This document shows, in pieces, positions 4,124-53,425 of a stretch of 64,000 bases of DNA. The notes beneath the pieces are model-generated. The model did no database searches. It saw only the letters and a program-made list of their open reading frames with translations, and had not been told where the DNA came from. A program made the translations under genes and the position numbers. Origin of the DNA: a virus. The stretch spans positions 63,324 through 127,323 of the IMG/VR virus record IMGVR_UViG_3300005613_000008; one strand, written 5' to 3'. Position 1 is the first letter of the stretch; each line of letters begins with the position of its first letter.

Positions 4124-4216
4124 ATGACAAGATTTCTTTTTGATTCTGCGATTAGCGGAGTGATTATGTATATCGGCTGGTTAGCTGGTATTGCTCTATA
4201 TAGTATTTGTTTCTAA
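4124..4216 (+). CDS. 30-aa hydrophobic micro-protein (MTRFLFDSAISGVIMYIGWLAGIALYSICF)
   Basis: ATG at 4124 with an AGGAG SD directly behind a sigma70 promoter; it is the tail of the tracked 3875..4216 frame. Confidence 0.55.
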   Translation: MTRFLFDSAISGVIMYIGWLAGIALYSICF

Positions 4217-4227
4217 TCGGAGGAGCC

Positions 4228-7200
4228 TTGATCAAAATTGCACACATTGCTGATACTCATATTAAGAATTTGAAGTATCACGAAGATTACCGCGCCTGCT
4301 TTGAGCAGATGTACGAAATCCTTCGAGAGCAGGAAGTAGATTATATCGTTCACTGCGGCGACATCGCACACACAAAGACCCAGATTTCCCCAGAGTTTGT
4401 GGAAATGGCGTCTGACTTTTTCACAAATCTCAGTAAGATTGCGACGACATTTATTATTCTTGGTAACCACGATGGTAACCTAAAGAACAGTAGCCGCCAA
4501 GACGCAATAACGCCTATTGTTCAGGCGCTTGATTTTGGAACTCTCCGACTATTGAAGAACTCAGGCGAGACTCATCTTGCCTATGGCAACGTTGTTCTCA
4601 ATGTTTTGTCTGTTTTTGATAGAGATAACTGGGTTCAGCCCACAGATCCAGATAAAATCAATATTGCTCTCTATCACGGCGCAATCTCCAACTGCCAGAC
4701 AGACGCAGGCTGGACGATGGAGCATGGTGAAGATAATCTCTCAATCTTTGAAGAGTTTGATTTTGCAATGCTTGGCGACATTCACAAGCGCCAGTTCTTG
4801 GATAAGGAGCAGCGTGTCTACTACGCAGGATCTACCATCCAGCAGAACCATGGAGAAGAAGACAATAAGGGCTTCTCTGTTTGGACTATTAATTCTAAGG
4901 ACGATTGGAACATTGAACACTTTGGGCTACAGAACCCTCGTCCATTTGTTACAGTCGAACTAACATGTACAGGCAAGATCCCTCGCAAGACTACTGTACC
5001 TGCAAACGCCCGCCTACGTCTTGTAAGTGATAACAATCTGCCTCTTGACGTAATGCGTAAAGCAGTAGATATAGCAAAACACAAGTTTCGCCCAGAGTCT
5101 ATCTCTTTCCTTAATCGCGCCGCAGGCAAACGTGGTGATGTTGAAGGGTTAACAGAAGGGCTTGGAGCACAGAATCTTCGAGATCCAGAAGTTCAGCAGG
5201 AGTTGATCTCAGAGTATCTCAAAGATTATCAGGTTAGTTCTGACACTCTATCTAAGGTTTATGAACTGAACTCAAAGTATAACGTTCGGGTCGAATCAAA
5301 AGAAGATATTTCTAGAAATGTAAATTGGGATCTCGTCAGATTTGAATGGTCTAATCTATTCAATTATGGAGAGAACAACTGCGTTGACTTCAATAATGTA
5401 AATGGAATTGTCGGTATTTTTGGTAAGAACTTCTCAGGTAAGTCTTCCATTATTGATGCCATTCTCTTTACAATGTTCAATACAACTTCTAAAAACGAGC
5501 GCAAGAATGTCAATGTTGTAAATCAGAACCGCGATTGGGGCGAAGGCAAGTTGTCTATTGCTATTAACGATAAGACCTACACAATCTGTCGCAAGGTCAC
5601 AAAATATGTAAAGAAAGGCAAAGACGGCGAAAGTACAGAAGCAAAAACCGAACTAGACTTTTTGGTCTATGACGCTGTTCTTGACGAGACTACTTCACTA
5701 AACGGCACAACTCGCAACGAAACCGACGCAGTAATCCGTCGTCACTTTGGGACTATTGACGATTTTCTTATTTCATCTCTATCCTCGCAGCATGGCGCTC
5801 TTGCGTTTATCAATGAGGGTTCAACCAAGCGTAAGGAAATCATTGCGAAGTTCCTCGATCTTCAGTTCTTTGATAAGAAATTCAAACTAGCCAAAGAGGA
5901 CTCTATTACGTCCAAGGCACTCGTCAAAAAATTAGAAGGGCGAGATTACGAAAAAGAAATTCTGGAAGCAGAGGAAGCCTTTGAGAGCTACAAAAAGGCT
6001 ATTTCTGTGGTAGAGGCAGAAGAGAAATTGATAGAAACCAAGTTGGCTACAGCCCATATCCTTCTAAACGATGTTTCTCGTAAGATTATCGATATTCCGA
6101 CAGATGCGATCGATATCCACACAGTTCAGTCCGAGATCAAAACAATAAAAAATCAACTGATTTCTCTATCTCAATCGGTAGTTGAAGATTCTGAGAAACT
6201 AATTAAGGAAAGAGAACGCTTTGAGAAGATCTCGGCTTTAATGATGAGCCTTGATTACGACTCACTAAAAGACTCTCTTAGTACAATTCAGGAAACTGAA
6301 GAGAGGCTTAAGGGCTTCACAAGCAGATTGGAGATTGCGACCGAGAAAAAGAGGCTATTAGAAGATATTCCCTGTGGCTCATCTTACCCTGCTTGTAAGT
6401 TTATTCGTGATGCTCACGTCGCATCAGCGACAATTCCAGAAGTGGAATCAAAAGCGAATGAACTTCGCAACATTCTTGAGGGACTTAACCCCGAGATTGT
6501 ACGAGACCACCTAAACAAGTACAGTGCGCTTGAAACAAAGCGAATCAACACCAAAACCTTTATTAAGGAACTGGAACTATCGGTTGAAAAGATGAATAGC
6601 GCAATTCAGCGTCTGAATACAAAGATGCAGGAACTTGTCGCACAGCAGTCGGAATACAATGACAATAAGGAAGCAATCGAGAATCTAGAAAAACTAATAA
6701 AGGAGAAGGATACATATGACAATCAAATCAAATCTCTTGAAAGAGAGAATCGATCAAATAACCAAAAGAAGATTGATCTTTATAAATCACTTGGTTCAGA
6801 AGAACAACGAGTCGAAAGCCTCAAAGAAAGAAGAATAGAGTTCGAGACAATTCAATCGGAGTATGCAGCGTATGATTTATTCCTGCGCTGTATGCATCCG
6901 AACGGGATTGCTTACGATATCATCAAGCAGAAACTACCAGTAATCAACGAAGAGATTGCAAAGATCCTATCAAACGTCGTAGACTTTGAGATCTTTTTTG
7001 AGACATCAGGCAACAAGTTTGACATTTTTATCAAGCACCCTCGGTATGATGCCCGCCCTATTGAGATGGCGTCCGGTGCGGAGAAGTCTATGGCTGCTAT
7101 GGCTATTCGTCTTGCTCTGCTCTCCGTATCTTCTTTGCCAAAGGGAAACACTTTCGTACTTGACGAGCCCGGTACTGCTTTGGACGAAGAGAATATGGCT

Positions 7201-7341
7201 GGATTTATTCGGATCTTGGAACTAATTAAGGTATATTTCAAGAACGTCTTGCTGATTTCTCACCTTGATTCTCTCAAGGATTGTGTAGATATGCAGATTG
7301 TGATTGAGAAAGAAGCAGGTTTTGCAAAGGTAAATCAATAA
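4228..7341 (+). CDS. Fused SbcD/Mre11 nuclease - SbcC/Rad50 ATPase (T4 gp47-gp46 fusion)
   Basis: Phosphoesterase motifs HIADTH, HCGDIAH, GNHD, YHG, GDIH; Walker A GKNFSGKSS; long coiled coil; signature ASGAEK; Walker B VLDEPG; H-loop LISH. The likely start is TTG 4228 after GGAGG. Confidence 0.92.
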   Translation: MIKIAHIADTHIKNLKYHEDYRACFEQMYEILREQEVDYIVHCGDIAHTKTQISPEFVEMASDFFTNLSKIATTFIILGNHDGNLKNSSRQDAITPIVQALDFGTLRLLKNSGETHLAYGNVVLNVLSVFDRDNWVQPTDPDKINIALYHGAISNCQTDAGWTMEHGEDNLSIFEEFDFAMLGDIHKRQFLDKEQRVYYAGSTIQQNHGEEDNKGFSVWTINSKDDWNIEHFGLQNPRPFVTVELTCTGKIPRKTTVPANARLRLVSDNNLPLDVMRKAVDIAKHKFRPESISFLNRAAGKRGDVEGLTEGLGAQNLRDPEVQQELISEYLKDYQVSSDTLSKVYELNSKYNVRVESKEDISRNVNWDLVRFEWSNLFNYGENNCVDFNNVNGIVGIFGKNFSGKSSIIDAILFTMFNTTSKNERKNVNVVNQNRDWGEGKLSIAINDKTYTICRKVTKYVKKGKDGESTEAKTELDFLVYDAVLDETTSLNGTTRNETDAVIRRHFGTIDDFLISSLSSQHGALAFINEGSTKRKEIIAKFLDLQFFDKKFKLAKEDSITSKALVKKLEGRDYEKEILEAEEAFESYKKAISVVEAEEKLIETKLATAHILLNDVSRKIIDIPTDAIDIHTVQSEIKTIKNQLISLSQSVVEDSEKLIKERERFEKISALMMSLDYDSLKDSLSTIQETEERLKGFTSRLEIATEKKRLLEDIPCGSSYPACKFIRDAHVASATIPEVESKANELRNILEGLNPEIVRDHLNKYSALETKRINTKTFIKELELSVEKMNSAIQRLNTKMQELVAQQSEYNDNKEAIENLEKLIKEKDTYDNQIKSLERENRSNNQKKIDLYKSLGSEEQRVESLKERRIEFETIQSEYAAYDLFLRCMHPNGIAYDIIKQKLPVINEEIAKILSNVVDFEIFFETSGNKFDIFIKHPRYDARPIEMASGAEKSMAAMAIRLALLSVSSLPKGNTFVLDEPGTALDEENMAGFIRILELIKVYFKNVLLISHLDSLKDCVDMQIVIEKEAGFAKVNQ

Positions 7342-7567: not shown

Positions 7568-8704
7568 ATGAATAACGACGACGAGTTTGGCTTCTTGCCT
7601 CCCGCAGAAGCACCCCCATCATTCAACCAAGAAAAGGACCACTTCCACGAAGAAGTAGAAGCGGAAGACTTTGGTATGGTTGAGGACTTCGGATTACAGA
7701 TGGAATACTCTGACGAAGACATGCTCCCCGAGAACACAGCCCCATCATCTTTGAATGTGGGATTTGTCGGTGTTGGCGGGGGCGGCAATAAGATGGCGAA
7801 CGCTATGATTGAGTTGGGCTTTAACAAAACCCTGCTTGTCAACAGCACAGGCAAAGACATTCCAAAGAATGTAGATGAAGAACACGTCGTCCTTATTCCT
7901 GACTCTGACGGCATCGGCAAGAACATCTCCTACGGCAAGGAAGTTCTAACACAGAACGGCGCAGTAGTTGAAGACGCACTCCGCATCAAGCTAGGCAAGG
8001 TTGATTGGTTATTTGTTATGGCTGGTGGTGGTGGGGGCACTGGTTCGTCCGTGGTTGCTCTACAACCCGTCTTTGAGCGCTACCTACAATCTGTTCAGGC
8101 AAGCGGCAAGGTTGTCTATATCGTTTCTTGGCCAACAGCACAAGAAAACCTAAACCCAACCATCGCCCGTAACGCCCTGTCTCTGCTCAATGATGTGACC
8201 CCTTACCCACACATCGTTCTAGATAACGAGCGTTCTACGCGCCTCCTACGCGGTCGTATCGGTATGCTTGGTATGTATCCAGTAGCTAATACTCAGTTCT
8301 CTAAAATCCTAGCTCAGATCCTTAAACTATCTACCGAGGATTCCCCAATCCAATCATTTGATTCCAAGGATCTAGAAACCTGCTTAAACAAAGACGGTCG
8401 TGCCTTTATTGGTTCCACAATGATTAAGGATCCCAACACTGGCAAACTTGGCACAACGATCATGCACAACTGTATGAATCGTTCTGCTTGTCCGCCACCC
8501 AAGGGCAAAGCGGCAGCCGGGTCGCTTATCCTTGTGGTCAGCGAAGAAATGGTTGCCGACCCTCGCGTGTCCAAGCACCTTGAATCTGCGATTGCTTATG
8601 TTGGTGGTCGCTGCGAGACGCTTTTCTCTGGGGTTTATGTCAGAAAGAATGTCCCCGGACTGATTGCGATACTATCTATGAATGGGATCGAGAAAGGAAA
8701 ATAA
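7568..8704 (+). CDS. Tubulin/FtsZ-family GTPase (PhuZ/TubZ/CetZ-like) with acidic N-terminal extension
   Basis: T1 loop VGFVGVGGGGNK, signature MAGGGGGTGS, IVLDN, T7-like FDSKD. Confidence 0.88.
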   Translation: MNNDDEFGFLPPAEAPPSFNQEKDHFHEEVEAEDFGMVEDFGLQMEYSDEDMLPENTAPSSLNVGFVGVGGGGNKMANAMIELGFNKTLLVNSTGKDIPKNVDEEHVVLIPDSDGIGKNISYGKEVLTQNGAVVEDALRIKLGKVDWLFVMAGGGGGTGSSVVALQPVFERYLQSVQASGKVVYIVSWPTAQENLNPTIARNALSLLNDVTPYPHIVLDNERSTRLLRGRIGMLGMYPVANTQFSKILAQILKLSTEDSPIQSFDSKDLETCLNKDGRAFIGSTMIKDPNTGKLGTTIMHNCMNRSACPPPKGKAAAGSLILVVSEEMVADPRVSKHLESAIAYVGGRCETLFSGVYVRKNVPGLIAILSMNGIEKGK

Positions 8705-44000: not shown

Positions 44001-44290
44001 GATCTGAACACTCTATTGGTTTAGGCAAAGCAGATACTAAAATCGTTGCTAAATGGGTTGCCGATTCGACGGGAATGAGACCCGAAGAGCAAAATAGACC
44101 TGATGTCTCTGAAGAAGAAGATAAGCCTAAGAAGTGTGCAGTTCAGAAAAGACAATCTTCTTTCGCCGAAAGATTAGAAAAAGAATTAGTTATAGATAGT
44201 GCTGGAGATGCTGCCCTACTTGTAGTCGCAACCCCTGTTGGGTTTGTTGCTAATGCAATTGTTAAAGCAGCAATTGGTGGAGATGAATAA
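41003..44290 (+). CDS. Large baseplate hub-like protein
   Basis: 1095 aa after the LysM gene; C-terminal YNANI.C......PG.YIYIDP...GGYYMI...H resembles gp27/hub C-termini. Confidence 0.5.
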   Translation: MACYDPSNPLSKEEFDALFENVHKDSNKWDSVIQKYSSEQPDGFLEQAADWFSDSFRVSVEDIQKPNEFIPWMKDTGKHLKINTFYADYYRDVLKDGRFGSPSRIPFERRYSNIVCNTGNDSLENKILELYEESVSSYLNSVIESDEQGIFAQNTGLTSEQIRAASESKEGRDAAVAALDDQRDRSDKRKEDIKKSLFTDRAIYQEQCFLLSQIIKLVDLKQDTHIPRLPYTESKIFTKVSPPLKSEIDVNANSPILVADQPFGFINRMTQVAHSKKLFNLTTDKISSLVPSIKLYKVETDSKTGKDVGFVEIEFDSNPAIKSYAGERSALDLFKDKRKRGLGVGLKDFSFTFHGSDPFAAKKAILAKLSIFATSFGDLIQNRVGTYKAISKDSEQTNINSQYKFADLALKTGKTPEDLRTNLSKIQKDNLDKLNFRLKAVLGWAIPQDARFTSEERDAINDSFVNINLTPTTHDFSFDEMGGVTFTINYLAYIEDYFNNPSFNIFSSSGIELNRVGRKLFYEFLSNQKCDDNTIQQVKEQDAPLIQAEKGLSLSKIVRQLSYQNKILYYNLTYDQINQFLRTGKFTGSPPEPKIDNESDTTAIRQAFKTQLNDSGINDEKLIQNLQISLTSTSRDRNKISFFYVSDLIDVIMQNIDKSLNEISEKLKDSTKEALNYYQNAGSSTTNLATTIQTSLNEFIESSEKSSSVAKETERLLKAKEQFKKLRIVLGPMEITDPFDKSKIRFCSIGDIPISLNYFIEFMTEKMLSKDLAYYPITNFIKDLTSDLIRNFINSDGCFSFNTKQRVRLNSSVISAFARSDKARKEGEDDLTYFIRSNPKTIGKNGIFNVPTAMQKGLKPVLQVAGPSRSPLSLLQPEREFNYYVFYAGRAYPTEFMTGDEEKDAKSGIFHYILGKDRGLVKNITLDKTDQPGLKELRFEQEGYDGLTQLREVYNANIDCFLNPHTFPGTYIYIDPKGFSPEAGINYTQFGIGGYYMITRSEHSIGLGKADTKIVAKWVADSTGMRPEEQNRPDVSEEEDKPKKCAVQKRQSSFAERLEKELVIDSAGDAALLVVATPVGFVANAIVKAAIGGDE

Positions 44291-45468
44291 TGTCAACATT
44301 CTACAAAGATAGTAATAACGAATCTTCACTTCTTTTGTTTAATAAGACAATAGTTTATAAATCTGAAGTTTTAAAAACAGACTACCCAAACTTGATTGAT
44401 TTTACATTTGCCGAAAAAGCTTTATATGGAAAAACAAGTAGAAATTTTATTCCTATTGTTTCAAATCCAAATCTTATAACATTCAAAAACTTTAGATCTT
44501 CAGCAGATCCAAGACAAAGACTACAGGCAATAGGGTTTGTAGTAGATGCTTTTGAAGCATTAGCGCAGCAGTTTAAGAAAGCAGAACAGTCAGGCAAGAT
44601 CTATTCCGATGATCCTTATCTTACTAATCTAAAGGTTTATAAAAGCTATAAAAATAATAGAACAAACTATCAATCTTATCAAGTTAATTTTATCAATGCT
44701 CTCAAAACAAATATGAATGTTAATAACATTTATAACTTTCAAACTTTCATAAAAGAACTCCTTACCACAGTTTCTATTGTAACAAGAAGCTACCCAATGT
44801 CAATGCCTGCTTATACAAAAAGTCGCTTAAATAGTCTTACAAATACAGGTCTTGCTCTTGAGATTGCCGATGAACCCTATGATAACGACGATCAAAAAAT
44901 ATCACAGTTCGTAAACAGCAAGAATTGGGAGTTCTATGTAAATGCTTGTAACTCTTACGGATTTATGATCGATATCAATGCTCCTTGGCGTTTGATCGCA
45001 GATCTTGACTCGGAAGCGATGATAGGTTATGCTACTACTTATGGATTCAATTCAACGGATTTTGTTTTGGCATTAGGTTTTCAAACAACTCACAACTCAT
45101 ATTTCAATGACTTGCCGAGACAATTACTCAGTCTTTACAATGAGTTAGTGCCAACACATATACCAACTTACACAGAATGTGGTTCCAAGATTATAACAAC
45201 AGAGCGCTATACTATCGAGAGTCTGAAGGAAAAGTTCTCAAATGATTTCTTTTTGAAGTTTTATTTTGATCTCAGGTTCTCGGAAGAAGAGAATCAGTTC
45301 AATGTAACAGAGAAACAGAGGATCGTGAAGGATTGTCTTCAGATCTCCAAGGCACAAGACAATACCACAGCCATAGGTCGCTTTGAACGTTTTGTCAATC
45401 AACCATTTGACTACAGAGGATCCTTGAGTTATCTTAACAAGGCAAGAAAACTACGAGAGGACACATGA
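44290..45468 (+). CDS. Hypothetical protein
   Basis: 392-aa ORF, TAATG coupled. Confidence 0.7.
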   Translation: MSTFYKDSNNESSLLLFNKTIVYKSEVLKTDYPNLIDFTFAEKALYGKTSRNFIPIVSNPNLITFKNFRSSADPRQRLQAIGFVVDAFEALAQQFKKAEQSGKIYSDDPYLTNLKVYKSYKNNRTNYQSYQVNFINALKTNMNVNNIYNFQTFIKELLTTVSIVTRSYPMSMPAYTKSRLNSLTNTGLALEIADEPYDNDDQKISQFVNSKNWEFYVNACNSYGFMIDINAPWRLIADLDSEAMIGYATTYGFNSTDFVLALGFQTTHNSYFNDLPRQLLSLYNELVPTHIPTYTECGSKIITTERYTIESLKEKFSNDFFLKFYFDLRFSEEENQFNVTEKQRIVKDCLQISKAQDNTTAIGRFERFVNQPFDYRGSLSYLNKARKLREDT

Positions 45469-46655
45469 TTTTCCAAACACTTGACGACAAGTCGGAATGT
45501 GTTGGTGTTTATGTTGACGGAAAGCTTCACTTTGACAGCATCCCCGATGGTTTGACCAAGACATGGAAGTACACTGGCTCTGTGCAGGACGATGCAATCG
45601 AGTATGCTTGGCTCTACACAGGAGGAAAGAACCTTCAAGAAGCTTGTTCTGATGACCTCAAACAAGAACTAACTGAGATCCAGAAAACATTCAAAGCTTA
45701 TATGAAATCATTTCAGATCGCCAAGATAAACCTCCGAGATAACTGTTTCTTTGATCTCGTTCCCTCGGACTTTCTAATGGAATTCTGCGAGATTCGTAAT
45801 AAGATCACGGAACATGTTTTCAGCACTTATGAGAAGCCAGAAAATTACGATCACCTTGACCGTGTTTATAAGCTTCTTCACAAGATTCATTATCAGAAAT
45901 TGGAGATCAATGTGGATGGTTGCCGCAACCTTATGACGAACACAAGCGACCGAGAAGACATCAAGGTGCTTGTAAAAAATAAGTCACACTATGTTGACTA
46001 TAATCTTTTTGGAACGGTTACGGGGCGTCTCACAACCAATAGAACAAGTAATCCTATCTTGACTATGAAATCCAAGTTCCGCTCCCTAATCAAACCAACG
46101 AACGACTGGTTTGTGTCTCTTGATTACAACGGAGCAGAGGTTAGAACTTTTTTGGCTCTCTCGGGGCACGAACAGCCGCAGGAAGATATTCATCTTTGGA
46201 ATATGCGGCACCTTTACGCAAACACACCAATCGATCGTGACGAAGCTAAGGTGATGTTCTTCTCTGCATTCTACAACAACAACGATATGAGTCTAAACGG
46301 CTCTATCTACGACAGAGAGAAGGTTCTGACCGAGAACTATAAAGACAATAAAATTAAAACTCCTTTTGGGAGGACGGTTGAGGTAGATGAGAGAAAAGCT
46401 TTCAGCTATCTTATTCAGAGCACAACTGCTGACACCACTCTCGAACGTGCAGTAGAGTTAGATAGGATTCTTAGAAGTACAAAATCTCATGTTGCGTTCA
46501 TTGTTCATGACGAGATTGTTCTGGATATTCATGAAGACGATAAATATCTGATTCCAGAACTAAAAGAGGTATTCCAGAACAACAAACTTGGTAGTTTTAT
46601 GGCTAATATAAAGGCAGGTAAGACTTATGGAGATATGAAGGAATTGAAGCTATGA
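45465..46655 (+). CDS. polA: Family A DNA polymerase, polymerase domain only
   Basis: FGTVTGRLT, motif A LDYNGAEVR, motif B RDEAK.MFF, YLIQSTTAD, motif C VHDEIV. Confidence 0.85.
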   Translation: MIFQTLDDKSECVGVYVDGKLHFDSIPDGLTKTWKYTGSVQDDAIEYAWLYTGGKNLQEACSDDLKQELTEIQKTFKAYMKSFQIAKINLRDNCFFDLVPSDFLMEFCEIRNKITEHVFSTYEKPENYDHLDRVYKLLHKIHYQKLEINVDGCRNLMTNTSDREDIKVLVKNKSHYVDYNLFGTVTGRLTTNRTSNPILTMKSKFRSLIKPTNDWFVSLDYNGAEVRTFLALSGHEQPQEDIHLWNMRHLYANTPIDRDEAKVMFFSAFYNNNDMSLNGSIYDREKVLTENYKDNKIKTPFGRTVEVDERKAFSYLIQSTTADTTLERAVELDRILRSTKSHVAFIVHDEIVLDIHEDDKYLIPELKEVFQNNKLGSFMANIKAGKTYGDMKELKL

Positions 46656-47515
46656 TTTCGCTGATAGGCATAGGCGAAGCAGGCTGCAATGTGGTATCTC
46701 TGTTCGAGAACCATAAAGAATATAATTGTTTTCTATTCTCGGAAGGACAGGAGAATACAAAATACACGAGAAAACTATCAAAAGTGACTAAAGCAGAAGA
46801 TTGTGAGGAACAGGCACCTGACTTATCTTCTTACAAGACACTTTCGGCAATCCAAGAGAGGGTGCAAGTTTTTCTTTGCGGGTCTTCATTTTCCGCAAAC
46901 TATACACTTGCTATCTTACAGCAAATAAGAGACAGAAAAATAGACATTTTCTACATTAGACCCGATGTAGATCTCTTAATTGGAGAGTTACGGCTACAAG
47001 AGCGAGCAATTTTTGGTATTTTACAGGAATATGCTCGCTCCGGTTTATTCAATAGTATCACTATTTTCTCCAATCCAGAAATTGAAAAGACAATAGGCGA
47101 GATCCCAATAAAAAAATACTTTGAGGCTATCAACAAGAGTATTTATTATGCTGTTCATTACTTAAATGTATTCGATCACACAACACCGATCGTAGGCAAC
47201 TTGACAAAGCCCTCAGAAGTGCAGAGAATCCGCTCTGTAGGTGTGGTTTCAGTAGATAAATTAAGTGAACAATGGTACTACAAAATGCAGGAAGATCGCG
47301 ATGTAGCGTACTATTTATGTATAGCGACAAGCCGCTTGGAAACGGACGGAAAACTCCATTCCCGAGTGGTTGAGAGCCTAAAAAGTAAACCCCGAAACGC
47401 ATTTAAAAATGTGACTTATGGAATCTATGAGTCACCCTATGAAAGCGACTTCGGATTCTGCGTTGCTCACACAAATTTCATCCAAGGACAAAAAATACTT
47501 GACAGCACAGACTGA
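46652..47515 (+). CDS. Second, degenerate tubulin/FtsZ-family protein
   Basis: T1 loop LIGIGEAGCNV; the GGGTGS signature is replaced by CGSSFSA; IFSN and YFEAINK sit at tubulin-equivalent positions. Confidence 0.6.
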   Translation: MISLIGIGEAGCNVVSLFENHKEYNCFLFSEGQENTKYTRKLSKVTKAEDCEEQAPDLSSYKTLSAIQERVQVFLCGSSFSANYTLAILQQIRDRKIDIFYIRPDVDLLIGELRLQERAIFGILQEYARSGLFNSITIFSNPEIEKTIGEIPIKKYFEAINKSIYYAVHYLNVFDHTTPIVGNLTKPSEVQRIRSVGVVSVDKLSEQWYYKMQEDRDVAYYLCIATSRLETDGKLHSRVVESLKSKPRNAFKNVTYGIYESPYESDFGFCVAHTNFIQGQKILDSTD

Positions 47516-47527: not shown

Positions 47528-47575
47528 ATAACTTGAGCAAGGGGAAGCTCTCAGACATACCCCAGGAAAATACGC

Positions 47576-47604
47576 TTGACAGGACTTGGAGAGCGTGTTA
47601 CATT
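47576..47604 (+). promoter_or_regulatory. Sigma70-type promoter (TTGACA-17-TGtTACATT)
   Basis: 52 nt before the SSB start. Confidence 0.75.
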
Positions 47605-47655
47605 CAGATGGTGAGGAACGCTCATCATACTATAGCCCAACAAAAGGAGATTATT

Positions 47656-48423
47656 ATGGGAATCAATATGGAACTAATGCGGAAGAAGCTAGCCACACTT
47701 CGTGGCGAGGGTGGAGGCGACCGCACCTCTGTCTGGTTCAAGCCGGATGAGGGCGACACGGACATTCGTATCGTCCCGACTGCTGACGGTGATCCACTAA
47801 AGGAGATTTTCTTCCACTATAACATTGAGGGACACAAGGCAGGTATTATGTGTCCAAAGCGAAACTTCGGTGAAGAGTGCGCTATCTGTGACTTTGCGTC
47901 CAAGCTTTGGCGTGATGGAACCGAAAACAACGATGAGGAAACAAAGAAACTTGCTAAGTCTCTCTTTGTTCGCACTCGTTACTTCTCGCCAGTAGTTGTT
48001 CGTGGTCTAGAATCCGAGGGTGTAAAGGTCTACGGCTACGGCAAGACCGCTTACGAACTCCTACTCGGTTACATTCTTGACCCGGAGTATGGCGATATTA
48101 CTGATGTAAAGGAAGGTACTGACATCACGATTACCTACACCAAGCCTACCCGCCCTGGCGCTTACCCGCAAACCAACATGAAGATGCGCCGTAACACCAG
48201 CGGTCTTCTTGAAGACGCAGACGCAATCCCTGGTCTGCTACAGAATATGCCGGACATTGATGGTCTGTTCACCCGCCATAGTTCAAGTGAGGTTTCTGCA
48301 ATCCTTGATTCTATGCTATCAGGCGATAGCTCCGCAGAGTCTCGTTCTCGCGAGACTACTCAGTACAACAGCAATCAGACCTCAAATGTCGATAAGGCAT
48401 TCAATGAACTAATGGCTGGCTAG
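47656..48423 (+). CDS. Single-stranded DNA-binding protein (T4 gp32-like)
   Basis: WFKP...IRIVP, CPK.NFGE.CAIC zinc site, RYFSPVVVR, KVYGYGK, DIT...GTD; AAGGAG SD before ATG 47656. Confidence 0.85.
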   Translation: MGINMELMRKKLATLRGEGGGDRTSVWFKPDEGDTDIRIVPTADGDPLKEIFFHYNIEGHKAGIMCPKRNFGEECAICDFASKLWRDGTENNDEETKKLAKSLFVRTRYFSPVVVRGLESEGVKVYGYGKTAYELLLGYILDPEYGDITDVKEGTDITITYTKPTRPGAYPQTNMKMRRNTSGLLEDADAIPGLLQNMPDIDGLFTRHSSSEVSAILDSMLSGDSSAESRSRETTQYNSNQTSNVDKAFNELMAG

Positions 48424-48445
48424 TAAAAGCGTATTGCTCCAATCG

Positions 48446-48478
48446 CCCCCACCCCTAAAAAGGTGGGGGTTTTTGTTT
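48446..48478 (+). terminator. Intrinsic terminator
   Basis: CCCCCACC-8nt-GGTGGGGG followed by TTTTTGTTT. Confidence 0.85.
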
Positions 48479-48505
48479 GCACTTTTCCTTTTGCTGTGTT
48501 ATAAT
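48477..48505 (+). promoter_or_regulatory. Sigma70-type promoter (TTGCAC-17-TGtTATAAT)
   Basis: Perfect -10 with the TG extension. Confidence 0.8.
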
Positions 48506-50804: not shown

Positions 50805-51569
50805 ATGGAAAATCAATTCTCAAAGTTTATGGATAAGAAGGACTTCTTCTTTCAGCTAGGTCAAAAAGACGGACAGGACGGAAAGTATAGAACTCGTGAA
50901 GAGATTTCTGGGCTTCCTGATGTCGGTCAGATCTCGGAAGATGATTTCCAAGAGTATCTTTCAGGTCGTGAGGTTGGTGAAGAGGATTCCCACTACTACG
51001 GTGACTTGTACGAACTTGACGAAGAAAACCTTCTAAACTTTGTAAATGAAGAAGAGGTTGAACTAGATGAGAAAAAAAAGAAGAAGTCAAAAGGCAAGAA
51101 AGATGCTTGCTACCACAAGGTTCGCGCTCGCTATGACGTGTGGCCTTCTGCTTATGCCAGTGGGGCTCTCGTTAAATGCCGCAAAGTTGGTGCTGCAAAC
51201 TGGGGCAACAAGTCCAAGAAGAAAGAGGGGATAGAACTAGACGATCAACTTCTTCAGATCATTAAAGAAGAATACCAAGCAGTGCTTGCCGAAAAAAAAA
51301 AGAAGAAGGCGGGCACTGAGTCAAGCAAAGAATCAAGTTTAAGAGACTGGTTTGGTCGTAAAGGCGGCAAGGGCTCTTCATCTGGCTGGGTAGATTGTAA
51401 CACTTGTCGTAAGGACAAAAAGACAGGCAGAAAGAAGTGCAGTTCTTGCGGTCGTAAGAGTGGCGAGAAGCGCTCTAAATATCCATCTTGTCGCCCAACT
51501 CCTGGCGCTTGCGAAGAAAGTGGTCGCGGAAAGTCTTGGGGCAAGAAGTCAGCTAAGGGAAAGGAATAA
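50805..51569 (+). CDS. Acidic/basic modular protein with K/C-rich modules (putative head-internal protein)
   Basis: KKDACYHKVRARYDVWPSAYASGALVKCRK and SLRDWF...WVDC...YPSCRP modules; internal LLQIIKEEY motif. Confidence 0.65.
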   Translation: MENQFSKFMDKKDFFFQLGQKDGQDGKYRTREEISGLPDVGQISEDDFQEYLSGREVGEEDSHYYGDLYELDEENLLNFVNEEEVELDEKKKKKSKGKKDACYHKVRARYDVWPSAYASGALVKCRKVGAANWGNKSKKKEGIELDDQLLQIIKEEYQAVLAEKKKKKAGTESSKESSLRDWFGRKGGKGSSSGWVDCNTCRKDKKTGRKKCSSCGRKSGEKRSKYPSCRPTPGACEESGRGKSWGKKSAKGKE

Positions 51570-53425
51570 TGAACATTCAAAAAATAATAGCAGAAGAACT
51601 AAAGCTTTTCCTTGAGGGTAAAGCAGAAGACCTTGTTTCAAAATACCCCGATCTTCAACCCGCTTACGATGCGGGCATCAAGAGCCCACAATATCTTCGG
51701 TGGATTCGGAAGCGCCGTGGCGGCGAACCAGTAGAAGACATTGTTGGTGTCGTCCAAGCCTTCGACGCTGCGAAGCAGCGTCTGAAAGCCAAAGGAATGT
51801 CACCTGACATTTATGCTTACAAGACGCCTGCTGTTCTTCGTCAAACTTTAGAAGACCTTGGCGGCTCCAAAGGAGCCGAAACTCGTCGTCTCAAAGATGA
51901 AGAAACAACCTACCTTGGAACCTTCGGTGATTGGATCGTGGCGATGCCACATACACGCGAAAGTTCGTGTCAGTTGGGCAAAGGCACCACATGGTGTACT
52001 GCCGCCACGCAATCACAAAACCTTTTCCTTTCATATGTTGCTAGAAAAGATGAAGACATTGTTCTTTATTACCTCATCAGAAAAGGTGCGGATCCAAGAG
52101 AAGATTCAACTGCTAAGCTTTCTGTTGGTTTTGTGAATGGAGAGCCGATTCTTGATGGAGAGGATGGTCATGTATCAGTTGATGCTAACAACAGAGGACT
52201 TGACGAGAGAAGACTTTCAAACATTCTAGGCGATCAGTTTGAGCCCATCATGACTGCAATGAAAGAAAGCGCTAGTTCAATTGAAGGTAAACACCCTGCC
52301 AAAAAGCAGGTGGAAAAGATTGCAAAGTCTAAAGATCCATCTGTTATTGACAAGTATGTGAGAGGCATGAAAGGAGACGAGAGAGAAGACTTCCTAGTGC
52401 AACTGTTGGAGTTTGAACCAAGCCCAGAAATTCTAGCAAAGCTTTCTGATGATGAGGGTTTTCGTGTCAGAAGAGATGTAGCCGGAAACCCTTCCACACC
52501 TCCCCAGATCTTAGTAAAGCTTTCTGATGATAAAGACGTATATGTCAGAATAGCTGTAGCCAGAAACCCTTCCATAACTCCCCAGATCTTAGCAAGGCTT
52601 TCTGATGATGAGGTTCCTAATGTCAGAGGAGCTATAGCCGGAAACCCTTCCATAACTCCCCAGATCTTAGCAAGGCTTTCTGATGATAAAGACGTATATG
52701 TCAGAATAGCTGTAGCCAGAAACCCTTCCATAACTCCCCAGATCTTAGCAAGGCTTTCTGATGATAAAGACGTATATGTCAGAATAGCTGTAGCCGGAAA
52801 CCCTTCCACACCTCCCCAGATCTTAGCAAAGCTTTCTGATGATAAGAATCCTTCTATCAGAGAAGCTGTAGCCAGAAACCCTTCCACAACTCCCCAGATC
52901 TTAGCAAAGCTTTCTGATGATAAGAATCCTTCTATCAGAGAAGCTGTAGCCAAAAACCCTTCCACACCTCCCCAGATCTTAGCAAAGCTTTCTGATGATG
53001 AGGATTTTTATGTCAAATGGGTTGCTGCAAACAACCCTAACTTTCCTAAACAACAGGACAACATAAATGAGTCCTTGTTTGATTTAAGAACTACTTACGA
53101 TGAGGGCACTACCATGCAATTTACCGAAGAATACATCAGACAAGTAATCAAAGAAGAATATGAGGCACTTCTTGACGAAAAGAAAAAGAAGCCTTGTAAG
53201 CCAGCTAAGGGAAAGCGTTTTGCTAAGCGTGTAAATGGCAAGTGTCGCTCATACGGGCAGGCAGGACAAGCAAAGGGCGGCGGTGATCGTATTCGTCCCG
53301 GCACAAAGAAAGGAGATGCTTACTGCGCTCGCTCTGCTAAGATTAAGAAGTGCAAGAACCCACCTTGTGCCAACGATCTTTCACGAAAGAAATGGAAGTG
53401 CCGTGGCTCTAAGTCAATGAAATAG
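51569..53425 (+). CDS. Multidomain protein: signal-like N-terminus, SCQLGKGTTWCT domain, 8 LRV/HEAT-like repeats, K/C-rich C-terminal module
   Basis: MNIQKIIAEEL; repeats IL.KLSDD....VR.AVA.NPS..PQ; internal MQFTEEYIRQVIKEEY at 53114. Confidence 0.75.
   Translation: MNIQKIIAEELKLFLEGKAEDLVSKYPDLQPAYDAGIKSPQYLRWIRKRRGGEPVEDIVGVVQAFDAAKQRLKAKGMSPDIYAYKTPAVLRQTLEDLGGSKGAETRRLKDEETTYLGTFGDWIVAMPHTRESSCQLGKGTTWCTAATQSQNLFLSYVARKDEDIVLYYLIRKGADPREDSTAKLSVGFVNGEPILDGEDGHVSVDANNRGLDERRLSNILGDQFEPIMTAMKESASSIEGKHPAKKQVEKIAKSKDPSVIDKYVRGMKGDEREDFLVQLLEFEPSPEILAKLSDDEGFRVRRDVAGNPSTPPQILVKLSDDKDVYVRIAVARNPSITPQILARLSDDEVPNVRGAIAGNPSITPQILARLSDDKDVYVRIAVARNPSITPQILARLSDDKDVYVRIAVAGNPSTPPQILAKLSDDKNPSIREAVARNPSTTPQILAKLSDDKNPSIREAVAKNPSTPPQILAKLSDDEDFYVKWVAANNPNFPKQQDNINESLFDLRTTYDEGTTMQFTEEYIRQVIKEEYEALLDEKKKKPCKPAKGKRFAKRVNGKCRSYGQAGQAKGGGDRIRPGTKKGDAYCARSAKIKKCKNPPCANDLSRKKWKCRGSKSMK
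52424..53047 (+). repeat. Eight tandem 78-bp (26-aa) leucine-rich-variant repeats
   Basis: CCCCAGATC recurs at 52502, 52580, 52658, 52736, 52814, 52892 and 52970. Confidence 0.92.

Follow-up and report, generated by a model that had tools for sequence, protein, structure and literature searches.

The 64,000 nucleotides analyzed here (the window) are the final 64 kb of the 127,323-base virus record IMGVR_UViG_3300005613_000008 from IMG/VR, whose estimated completeness is 70%. The sole open reading frame (ORF) at 46652..47515 (+) encodes a protein of 287 amino acids, which is given the working name FtsZl. This protein adopts the tubulin/FtsZ fold, as far as prediction can establish, without carrying the glycine-rich GTP signature of the superfamily. 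It belongs to a previously unnamed family of the FtsZ/tubulin superfamily that is found almost only on viral contigs. Its gene holds a constant position between the genes for a family A DNA polymerase (polA) and a gp32-like single-stranded DNA-binding protein (SSB), is present in phages that have no canonical tubulin, and is under purifying selection. The explanation that we favor overall, with moderate confidence, is that FtsZl, as one of the core proteins of the replication block, binds a nucleotide and has a putative role in assembly or as a scaffold.

Predicted Fold of FtsZl

An AlphaFold2 model was built from 124 diverse members of the FtsZl family (alignment A1). It reached a mean predicted local distance difference test score (pLDDT) of 96 and a predicted template modeling score of 0.92. 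Comparison of the model with the PDB by Foldseek yielded solely FtsZ, TubZ, and CetZ chains as top matches, all over the full length, with E values of 6e-13 to 4e-11 and template modeling (TM) scores of 0.6-0.7. FtsZ chains ranked at the top of this list (E 6e-13, TM 0.65-0.70), and among viral models (BFVD) phage FtsZ and PhuZ were matched. An independent all-against-all comparison with VIA-align gave Z scores of 23.5 for CetZ, 21.2 for Bacillus cereus TubZ/RepX (275 residues aligned), about 19-20 for FtsZ and for alpha-, beta-, gamma-, bacterial, Asgard, and Odin tubulins, and about 16 for PhuZ. The best unrelated fold was a short-chain dehydrogenase with a Z score of 8.8, aligned to the N-terminal domain alone. 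Because the AlphaFold2 model and the full-length matches from both Foldseek and VIA-align agree, the tubulin/FtsZ fold was assigned.

Residues 1-281 of FtsZl align to CetZ, TubZ, FtsZ, and alpha-, beta-, and gamma-tubulin. The two-domain architecture of the superfamily is present in the model, with a Rossmann-like N-terminal domain, the core helix H7, and a C-terminal beta-sheet domain. The order of elements is that of the FtsZ core: strands S1-S6 with helices H1-H6, the long helix H7, and a four-stranded C-terminal domain. Helix H8 is missing from the model downstream of the T7 loop, and the chain stops 6-9 residues past the last core strand, leaving no C-terminal tail. A first-pass annotation, made from the DNA sequence alone, had called the protein a second, signature-less paralogue of the intact tubulin encoded elsewhere in the window. 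Common membership in the superfamily fold is supported by the structural matches (Foldseek E 6e-13; Z 20-23.5 as compared with 8.8 for the next fold); a specific sister relationship is not, the two proteins being about 11% identical and no such relationship having emerged.

Nucleotide-pocket Motifs

The family alignment A1 was compared profile-to-profile (hhalign) with A2, an alignment of the phage canonical tubulin family. FtsZl columns 7-186 aligned with tubulin residues 66-265, from T1 through H7, with a probability of 89% and an E value of 2e-6. The N terminus of FtsZl reads MISLIGIGEAGCNV / MISLIGIGEAGCNVVSLF in the translation of ORF 46652-47515. Its residues 6-13, GIGEAGCN (46667..46690, +), form the T1 loop with the pattern GxGxxGxN and align with tubulin GVGGGGN. 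Gly6, Gly8, and Gly11 are conserved in 81-99% of the family, in keeping with the GxGxxG(x)N pattern of the superfamily, and the tubulin-like appearance of the GIGEAGCNV stretch noted in the first-pass annotation is thereby upheld.

The T4 loop is degenerate. Residues 74-84 read FLCGSSFSANY, and residues 76-84, CGSSFSANY (46877..46903, +), stand in place of GGGTG(S/T)G and are aligned to GGGGGTGS of the phage tubulin. Because the profile alignment sets G77-S-S-F-S-A-N83 opposite tubulin G-G-G-G-G-T-G, the signature loop is truly replaced, as had been read from the window sequence when CGSSFSA was noted where GGGTGS was expected. The pattern (G/A)GGTG(S/T)G is absent from FtsZl, and across the family only Gly77 of the loop is conserved in more than 90% of the members. 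The family consensus of the loop is G-[SAG]-G-x-[IV]-S-G, and the version in the window is the most degenerate one seen.

Other parts of the pocket are retained. In T5, Pro104 and Asp105 are conserved in 85 and 69% of the family, respectively. The counterparts of the guanine contacts lie at 47072..47134 (+). There, Asn141 of T6 aligns with the Asn (Asn220) of the invariant D-N-E of phage tubulin and is 81% conserved, and Phe157 and Asn161 of helix H7 align with the invariant Tyr237 and Asn241 of phage tubulin, the guanine-stacking aromatic residue and the hydrogen-bonding Asn of tubulins; Asn161 is conserved in 85% of the family. As judged from the alignment, FtsZl appears to have all residues expected to contact base and ribose, namely the Asn of T6 and, in H7, an aromatic residue together with Asn/Asp.

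The T7-equivalent loop (residues 176-192; 47177..47227, +) has neither a following helix H8 in the model, as assigned by DSSP, nor the conserved acidic pair of NxDxxD/E. An acidic residue occupies position 186 in 42% and position 189 in 56% of the family, the window protein having Lys186 and Glu189, and all 18 columns of the loop vary across the family. The most conserved motif of the family is QEYARSG (residues 125-131; 47024..47044, +) at the end of helix H5, with Gln125, Arg129, and Ser130 kept in 94-98% of the members. It lies outside the classical nucleotide loops and, from the topology of the fold, would be placed on the face opposite the nucleotide.

The pocket residues conserved in the family are thus Gly6, Gly8, Gly11, Gly77, Pro104, Asn141, and Asn161. 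Given that FtsZl retains the T1 loop, Pro-Asp in T5, Asn in T6, and the aromatic and Asn base contacts in H7, it likely binds a nucleotide, probably a guanine nucleotide. A classical polymerization-activated GTPase cycle appears unlikely, because the canonical T4 glycines and the conserved catalytic pair of T7 are missing.

Family, Distribution, and Selection

Relatives of FtsZl make up 939 clusters when grouped at 90% identity and 475 at 50%. Their length is 270-290 amino acids in nearly all cases, and none of them bears a functional name. Searched as a single sequence, FtsZl had no match in Pfam, NCBIfam, or the sequences of the PDB, and the gathering score of PF00091 was not reached. A marginal, partial match (E 0.0085) was all that was returned from PHROGs, and no PHROG matched any of 20 diverse family members. 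PF00091 was weakly matched by 7 of the 124 family members (best E 4e-4). The family profile gave only weak KtrA and dehydrogenase matches among PDB sequences, with FtsZ at an E value of 1.6. No description of the family was found in the literature searched, and longer or fused forms of the protein were sought and not found, which is weak evidence.

A tblastn search of FtsZl against 50,697 deposited phage genomes, a collection that may omit the window's own genome or near ones, gave no match. The polymerase of the window matched only distant polymerases of Mycobacterium and Bacillus phages in the deposited phage genomes, and no cultured relative was found. The genomes of 185,579 bacterial and archaeal species were scanned for the motif [VI]LQEYARSG with a 20-row alignment. 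Two contigs encoding a relative were detected, both of them contigs of metagenome-assembled genomes (MAGs) with phage gene order. These GTDB contigs, PBLX01000020.1 and JABHTA010000215.1, are labeled Legionellales and Flavobacteriales, respectively, and carry the polA-FtsZl-gp32 module. Most likely, phage contigs were binned into MAGs here, and the labels are at best a weak hint to a host. A scan of IMG/VR with the distant member P0193 found no relatives. In the ESM Atlas, a 283-residue Nitrososphaerota cluster assigned to PF00091 (score 0.89) was noted as a candidate only.

Selection was evident at two levels. Among 28 sequences of the window clade (82-100% identical), 39% of the protein columns vary, but variation is limited to 2 of 13 columns in the T4 segment and to 1 of 11 in the QEYARSG segment. 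The ratio of nonsynonymous to synonymous substitution rates (dN/dS) of FtsZl was 0.04-0.08 in pairwise comparisons with nine clade members, and polA, gp32, and UvsX gave the same values in the same loci. The synonymous rate (dS) is saturated in most FtsZl pairs; the two closest pairs (dS 0.5-0.6) gave dN/dS values of 0.05-0.06. FtsZl is therefore under strong purifying selection and is not a decaying copy, because the T4 and QEYARSG segments are near-invariant in the clade and dN/dS is this low. The same dN/dS values, together with the 939 and 475 matching clusters, show that ORF 46652-47515 did not arise by chance.

Genomic Context

In the window, FtsZl is preceded by the gene for a family A DNA polymerase domain of 396 amino acids (45465..46655, +; PF00476, E 2.8e-13; phrog_17, E 1e-23), whose stop codon overlaps the FtsZl start codon as ATGA (read in CTATGA). 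It is followed by the gene for the gp32-like SSB (47533..48423, +; PF08804, E 9e-16), and thereafter by genes for UvsX/RecA, a 5'-3' exonuclease, a DnaB-type helicase, and a class II ribonucleotide reductase. The canonical FtsZ/CetZ-like tubulin (7568..8704, +; PF00091, E 2.3e-8), with the motifs GGGGN and GGGGGTGS, lies upstream at a distance of 39,084 bases. The location between polymerase and SSB, 39 kb from the tubulin, is thus as first annotated. Every gene of the window is carried on one strand.

A scan of IMG/VR detected at least 595 FtsZl loci, 80 of which (45-95% identity) were kept. In all 80 loci the order polA, FtsZl, gp32 was found for every neighbor reached, and UvsX, exonuclease, DnaB, and ribonucleotide reductase came next wherever the contig extended that far. 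In most of these loci the polA stop overlaps the FtsZl start. Identical neighbors were found for one member with 25% and one with 38% identity and at 21 further loci with 22-49% identity. FtsZl diverges faster than its neighbors (24-35% identity versus 33-48% for polA, 41-57% for gp32, and 53-76% for UvsX). It was present in seven of seven complete relatives. FtsZl thus counts among the core replication-block genes of a large uncultured lineage of myoviruses with genomes of roughly 170-200 kb.

The neighboring polymerase calls for an alternative that we regard as a serious rival of the scaffold reading, even if an unlikely one. FtsZl might be an accessory subunit, serving processivity or tethering, of a short family A polymerase without exonuclease; it would act as a monomer or dimer, and the tubulin fold would merely be a nucleotide module. 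The ATGA overlap of the two genes in the window and their overlap in most loci fit this idea, as does the polymerase itself, which gave matches to the polymerase domain alone. The 3'-5' exonuclease domain PF01612 was sought in four complete relatives and not found, and because of this and the length of 396 residues the polymerase of the lineage may be split or devoid of exonuclease. The QEYARSG motif outside the nucleotide loops is likewise as expected of a partner-binding surface. However, stop/start overlaps are common throughout the genome, between unrelated genes included, a polA-FtsZl fusion was sought and none was found, and we know of no precedent for a polymerase subunit with a tubulin fold.

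Several further features of the region were recorded. The ORF at 44290-45468 (392 amino acids), which lies between baseplate-side genes and polA with overlapping junctions at both ends, was considered as a candidate for what the polymerase lacks, an N-terminal part or an exonuclease, and was rejected, as its AlphaFold2 model (pLDDT 88.7) matched neither a polymerase nor an exonuclease fold. Its best structural likeness is a weak one to LAS-type peptidoglycan peptidases (VanY/LdcB; Z 7.6, 139 residues), and the product may be a virion-associated cell-wall hydrolase. The gp32 ORF, open from TTG 47533, probably begins at ATG 47656, which is preceded by AAGGAG. A promoter-like sequence, TTGACA-17-TACATT, at 47576-47604 is a possible internal gp32 promoter. 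A strong terminator with a 9-bp GC-rich stem and a T run is found at 48445-48470, followed by a promoter-like site at 48476-48505 and then UvsX. Within the replication block, 51569-53425 encodes a leucine-rich-repeat-variant/HEAT-repeat protein of 618 amino acids. It is regarded as a variable insert because it is partial or much shortened in relatives (matches of about 300 bases in three loci, L004, L020, and L024).

Relation to the Canonical Tubulin

The tubulin of the window sits between a fused SbcCD-like nuclease gene (4207..7341) and the large terminase gene. The nuclease (alignment A3) was used as an anchor, and the region downstream of it was inspected for tubulin in 77 informative loci. 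Tubulin was present in the SbcCD-terminase interval of 14 loci, and none was detected in the other 63, most of which go straight to the terminase; the tubulin-less interval was read directly in genome G007. Five genomes that are at least 95% complete (172-204 kb, two with terminal repeats) all contain FtsZl (E 1e-88 to 1e-115). No tubulin was found in them by PF00091 or the tubulin family profile, the sole PF00091 signal being the T1 region of FtsZl. When G001 and G016, two complete genomes that also have FtsZl, were searched in this way, tubulin was recovered, so that two of the seven complete relatives carry a tubulin. FtsZl together with a tubulin-less SbcCD-terminase interval was found in seven more long fragments. 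The co-occurrence check thus gave 13 genomes or long fragments with FtsZl and no tubulin and four with both, namely the window, G001, G016, and G018.

A maximum-likelihood tree was calculated for the 17 FtsZl proteins. The four from tubulin-bearing genomes form a single split with 100/100 support, and no internal branch of the tree is longer than theirs (0.9 substitutions per site). Exactly these four have a T4 loop that ends in Asn83; the remaining 13 mostly keep G-x-G-x-I-[ST]-G. Because all seven complete relatives have FtsZl and only two have tubulin, and because 13 genomes are tubulin-less, FtsZl is older than the tubulin and does not need it to work. It is thus the core gene inherited from the ancestor, to which a single clade later added the tubulin as an accessory gene.

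This distribution bears on the proposal, made in the first-pass annotation, that FtsZl is a pseudo-GTPase partner of the 7568 tubulin that copolymerizes with, caps, or regulates its filaments in a two-tubulin phage cytoskeleton, or links them to the replisome as an adaptor. As a general role, partnership with the tubulin fails on the seven-to-two count in complete relatives, and we consider the two-tubulin idea improbable, about on a par with that of a polymerase subunit. The two genes do occur together in four genomes, and the fully supported split, the longest branch, and the most degenerate T4 loop in exactly these would fit a shift in function when the tubulin arrived. However, FtsZl persists in 13 tubulin-free genomes, five of them complete, the two genes lie 39 kb apart in separate modules, and the T7-equivalent loop, which would be needed to contact the nucleotide of a partner, is not conserved. 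Because the co-occurrence is a single phylogenetic event, the coincidence of tubulin arrival and T4 decay carries no statistical weight and is suggestive at most. A secondary, putative interplay of FtsZl and tubulin within the window clade is possible.

The sequence of known structure nearest to the 7568 tubulin is CetZ (3zid, E 3e-10). The tubulin is 85-98% identical between phages whose flanking SbcCD-like proteins are 52-60% identical (loci L119-L198; in L134, 98% for tubulin and 55% for SbcCD), which points either to unusual constraint or to recent exchange. A much more divergent tubulin (G024:C1:17019-17924, locus L216; E 4.6e-38 to the tubulin profile) was found on a related 120-kb fragment, about 70 kb from the SbcCD-like gene of that record. 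The FtsZl profile weakly cross-matches this tubulin (E 4e-6), which provides independent support for the homology of the two families.

Comparison with Known Members of the Superfamily

The tubulin-superfamily proteins described from phages and plasmids act as motors for spindles (PhuZ) or partition (TubZ). To our knowledge, all PhuZ- and TubZ-type proteins have the canonical GTP signature. FtsZl resembles TubZ/RepX (4ei7, 3m8k, 4xcq) in its two-domain fold (Z 21.2), and the 275 aligned residues are the longest structural alignment obtained. B. cereus TubZ was deposited as "plasmid replication protein RepX." TubZ/RepX proteins are tubulin-like proteins required for the stability of Bacillus plasmids (PMC3160578), and, like FtsZl, they are products of a mobile replicon; they are linked to maintaining or replicating its DNA, as FtsZl would be. 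TubZ differs in that it keeps GGGTGSG and the catalytic acid of T7, carries an extended C-terminal helix with a tail that serves filament contacts and TubR binding, and adjoins tubR/tubC. FtsZl, in contrast, ends directly behind strand S10, combines a degenerate T4 loop with the lack of a conserved T7 acid pair, and is located between polA and gp32. The C-terminal tail and the neighboring adaptor or centromere that go with TubZ and PhuZ are lacking; the neighbors were polA and gp32 in all loci.

The best structural match was CetZ (3zid and 4b45, Z 23.5 and 22.0, 257-261 residues), a group of archaeal cell-shape proteins. CetZ is cellular, has canonical GTP motifs, and is only 10-12% identical to FtsZl, with no relationship detected at the sequence level. 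PhuZ (3rb8, 3zbq, 9pm9) is, like FtsZl, a phage-encoded member of the superfamily, but with Z scores of 15.8-16.2 it is more distant than CetZ, TubZ, and FtsZ. It is found in the jumbo phages that form a nucleus and has canonical GTP motifs as well as an acidic C-terminal tail by which three-stranded filaments are built.

FtsZ shares the full-length fold with FtsZl, and counterparts of its T1 loop, T5 proline, and T6 Asn are present. FtsZl is without GGGTGTG, the T7 motif NxDFAD, helix H8, and the C-terminal linker with the membrane-tether peptide. PF00091 and TIGR00065 were not matched by FtsZl, which, having neither a TIGR00065 match nor the C-terminal peptide, is not FtsZ proper. This comparison also bears on a takeover of the host, in which FtsZl as an FtsZ mimic would cap or poison the filaments of host FtsZ and block division during infection, a role raised in the first-pass annotation. 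The FtsZ chains at the top of the Foldseek list and the missing T7 catalytic pair, which gives FtsZl the look of a chain-terminating subunit, speak for it. Yet bacterial FtsZ (Z 20, 12-14% identity) is no closer to FtsZl than CetZ, TubZ, and eukaryotic tubulins are, and surfaces that would need to fit host FtsZ diverge to 22% identity across the family. FtsZl is, moreover, a universally conserved core gene within the polA-gp32 unit and not a variable early gene. Poisoning of FtsZ is thus poorly supported as a general role, and we rate this reading below the two considered above.

Similar in kind are FtsZl1 and FtsZl2, which, like FtsZl, are highly divergent branches outside cell division that were recognized by remote homology (Makarova and Koonin 2010; PMC2875224). 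They retain GGGTG(S/T)G and have large extra C-terminal regions, either a coiled coil or an alpha/beta region of 300 amino acids. FtsZl1 is without recognizable T6-H7 and C-terminal domain, and both are cellular and linked to membrane remodeling (PMC2875224). The family described here is the reverse: its core is minimal and complete, its signature is degenerate, and it is found almost only on viral contigs. With 287 amino acids, FtsZl has no extra C-terminal region next to its altered signature.

It is very improbable that FtsZl, rather than being tubulin-like in function, is a TrkA_N/KtrA-like enzyme or regulator that binds NAD(P) or a nucleotide through a Rossmann fold: TrkA_N is weakly matched by 11 of the 124 family members (best E 3.9e-6), the family profile matches KtrA (E 9e-4), and GxGxxG is accompanied by an acidic residue closing strand 2 (Asp30, 72% of the family), but the 281-residue model including H7 and the C-terminal domain matches the tubulin superfamily with Z scores of 20-23.5, dehydrogenases reach 8.8 at most and on the N-terminal domain alone, profile matches of this kind stay below threshold, and the window protein has Ser at position 30. 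The weak TrkA_N and KtrA matches are explained by the N-terminal domain of tubulin being itself Rossmann-like. FtsZl is a new virus-only branch of the superfamily in a new genomic role.

Discussion

The scaffold reading that we favor can be put as follows. FtsZl is a minimal core of about 280 residues, consisting of the Rossmann-like nucleotide-binding domain, H7, and the C-terminal domain without a tail. It is made from one transcription unit with polA and the SSB that runs to the terminator at 48445-48470, and it would act with replication proteins as a nucleotide-regulated assembly or scaffold that organizes or positions the replication machinery or the replicating DNA. In function, its nearest relative may be plasmid TubZ/RepX rather than a division or spindle tubulin. 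In the window clade, a canonical tubulin joined later, and the T4 loop underwent further drift.

A number of observations weigh against this view. What points to a replication role is the position of the gene, and gene order is conserved along the whole genome across the lineage. Two unrelated baseplate-side genes, 41003 and 44290, likewise adjoin polA through overlapping stop codons, such overlaps being found genome-wide. Because order is kept genome-wide and unrelated genes overlap as well, position by itself is moderate evidence for a role in replication. A search for a fusion of FtsZl to a replication protein found none. The weak matches of the Rossmann/TrkA_N type bear on the identity of the ligand. 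In addition, FtsZl is mildly acidic (isoelectric point 5.8), which gives no hint of direct non-specific binding to DNA.

A bolder version, which we put forward only tentatively, is that FtsZl represents a third kind of phage tubulin system. It would be a signature-less, FtsZ-fold component of a replisome or replication factory, regulated by nucleotide and physically coupled to an exonuclease-less polymerase and gp32 throughout this large and abundant lineage, one sub-lineage of which would later have become a true two-tubulin phage. If FtsZl works with the polymerase and the SSB, the family would provide a natural series of motifs for nucleotide binding and assembly, from a near-canonical T4 loop in tubulin-less phages to a fully degenerate one in tubulin-bearing phages.

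The compact and abundant FtsZl family is fixed in the replication block, and not in a partition or nucleus module. It retains the fold and the residues for base binding, but the signature loop and the catalytic pair of T7 are gone. With it, hundreds of "hypothetical proteins" on contigs from viral metagenomes gain a name and a testable hypothesis. If FtsZl works with the polymerase and the SSB, the uses of the FtsZ/tubulin fold would extend to DNA replication itself.

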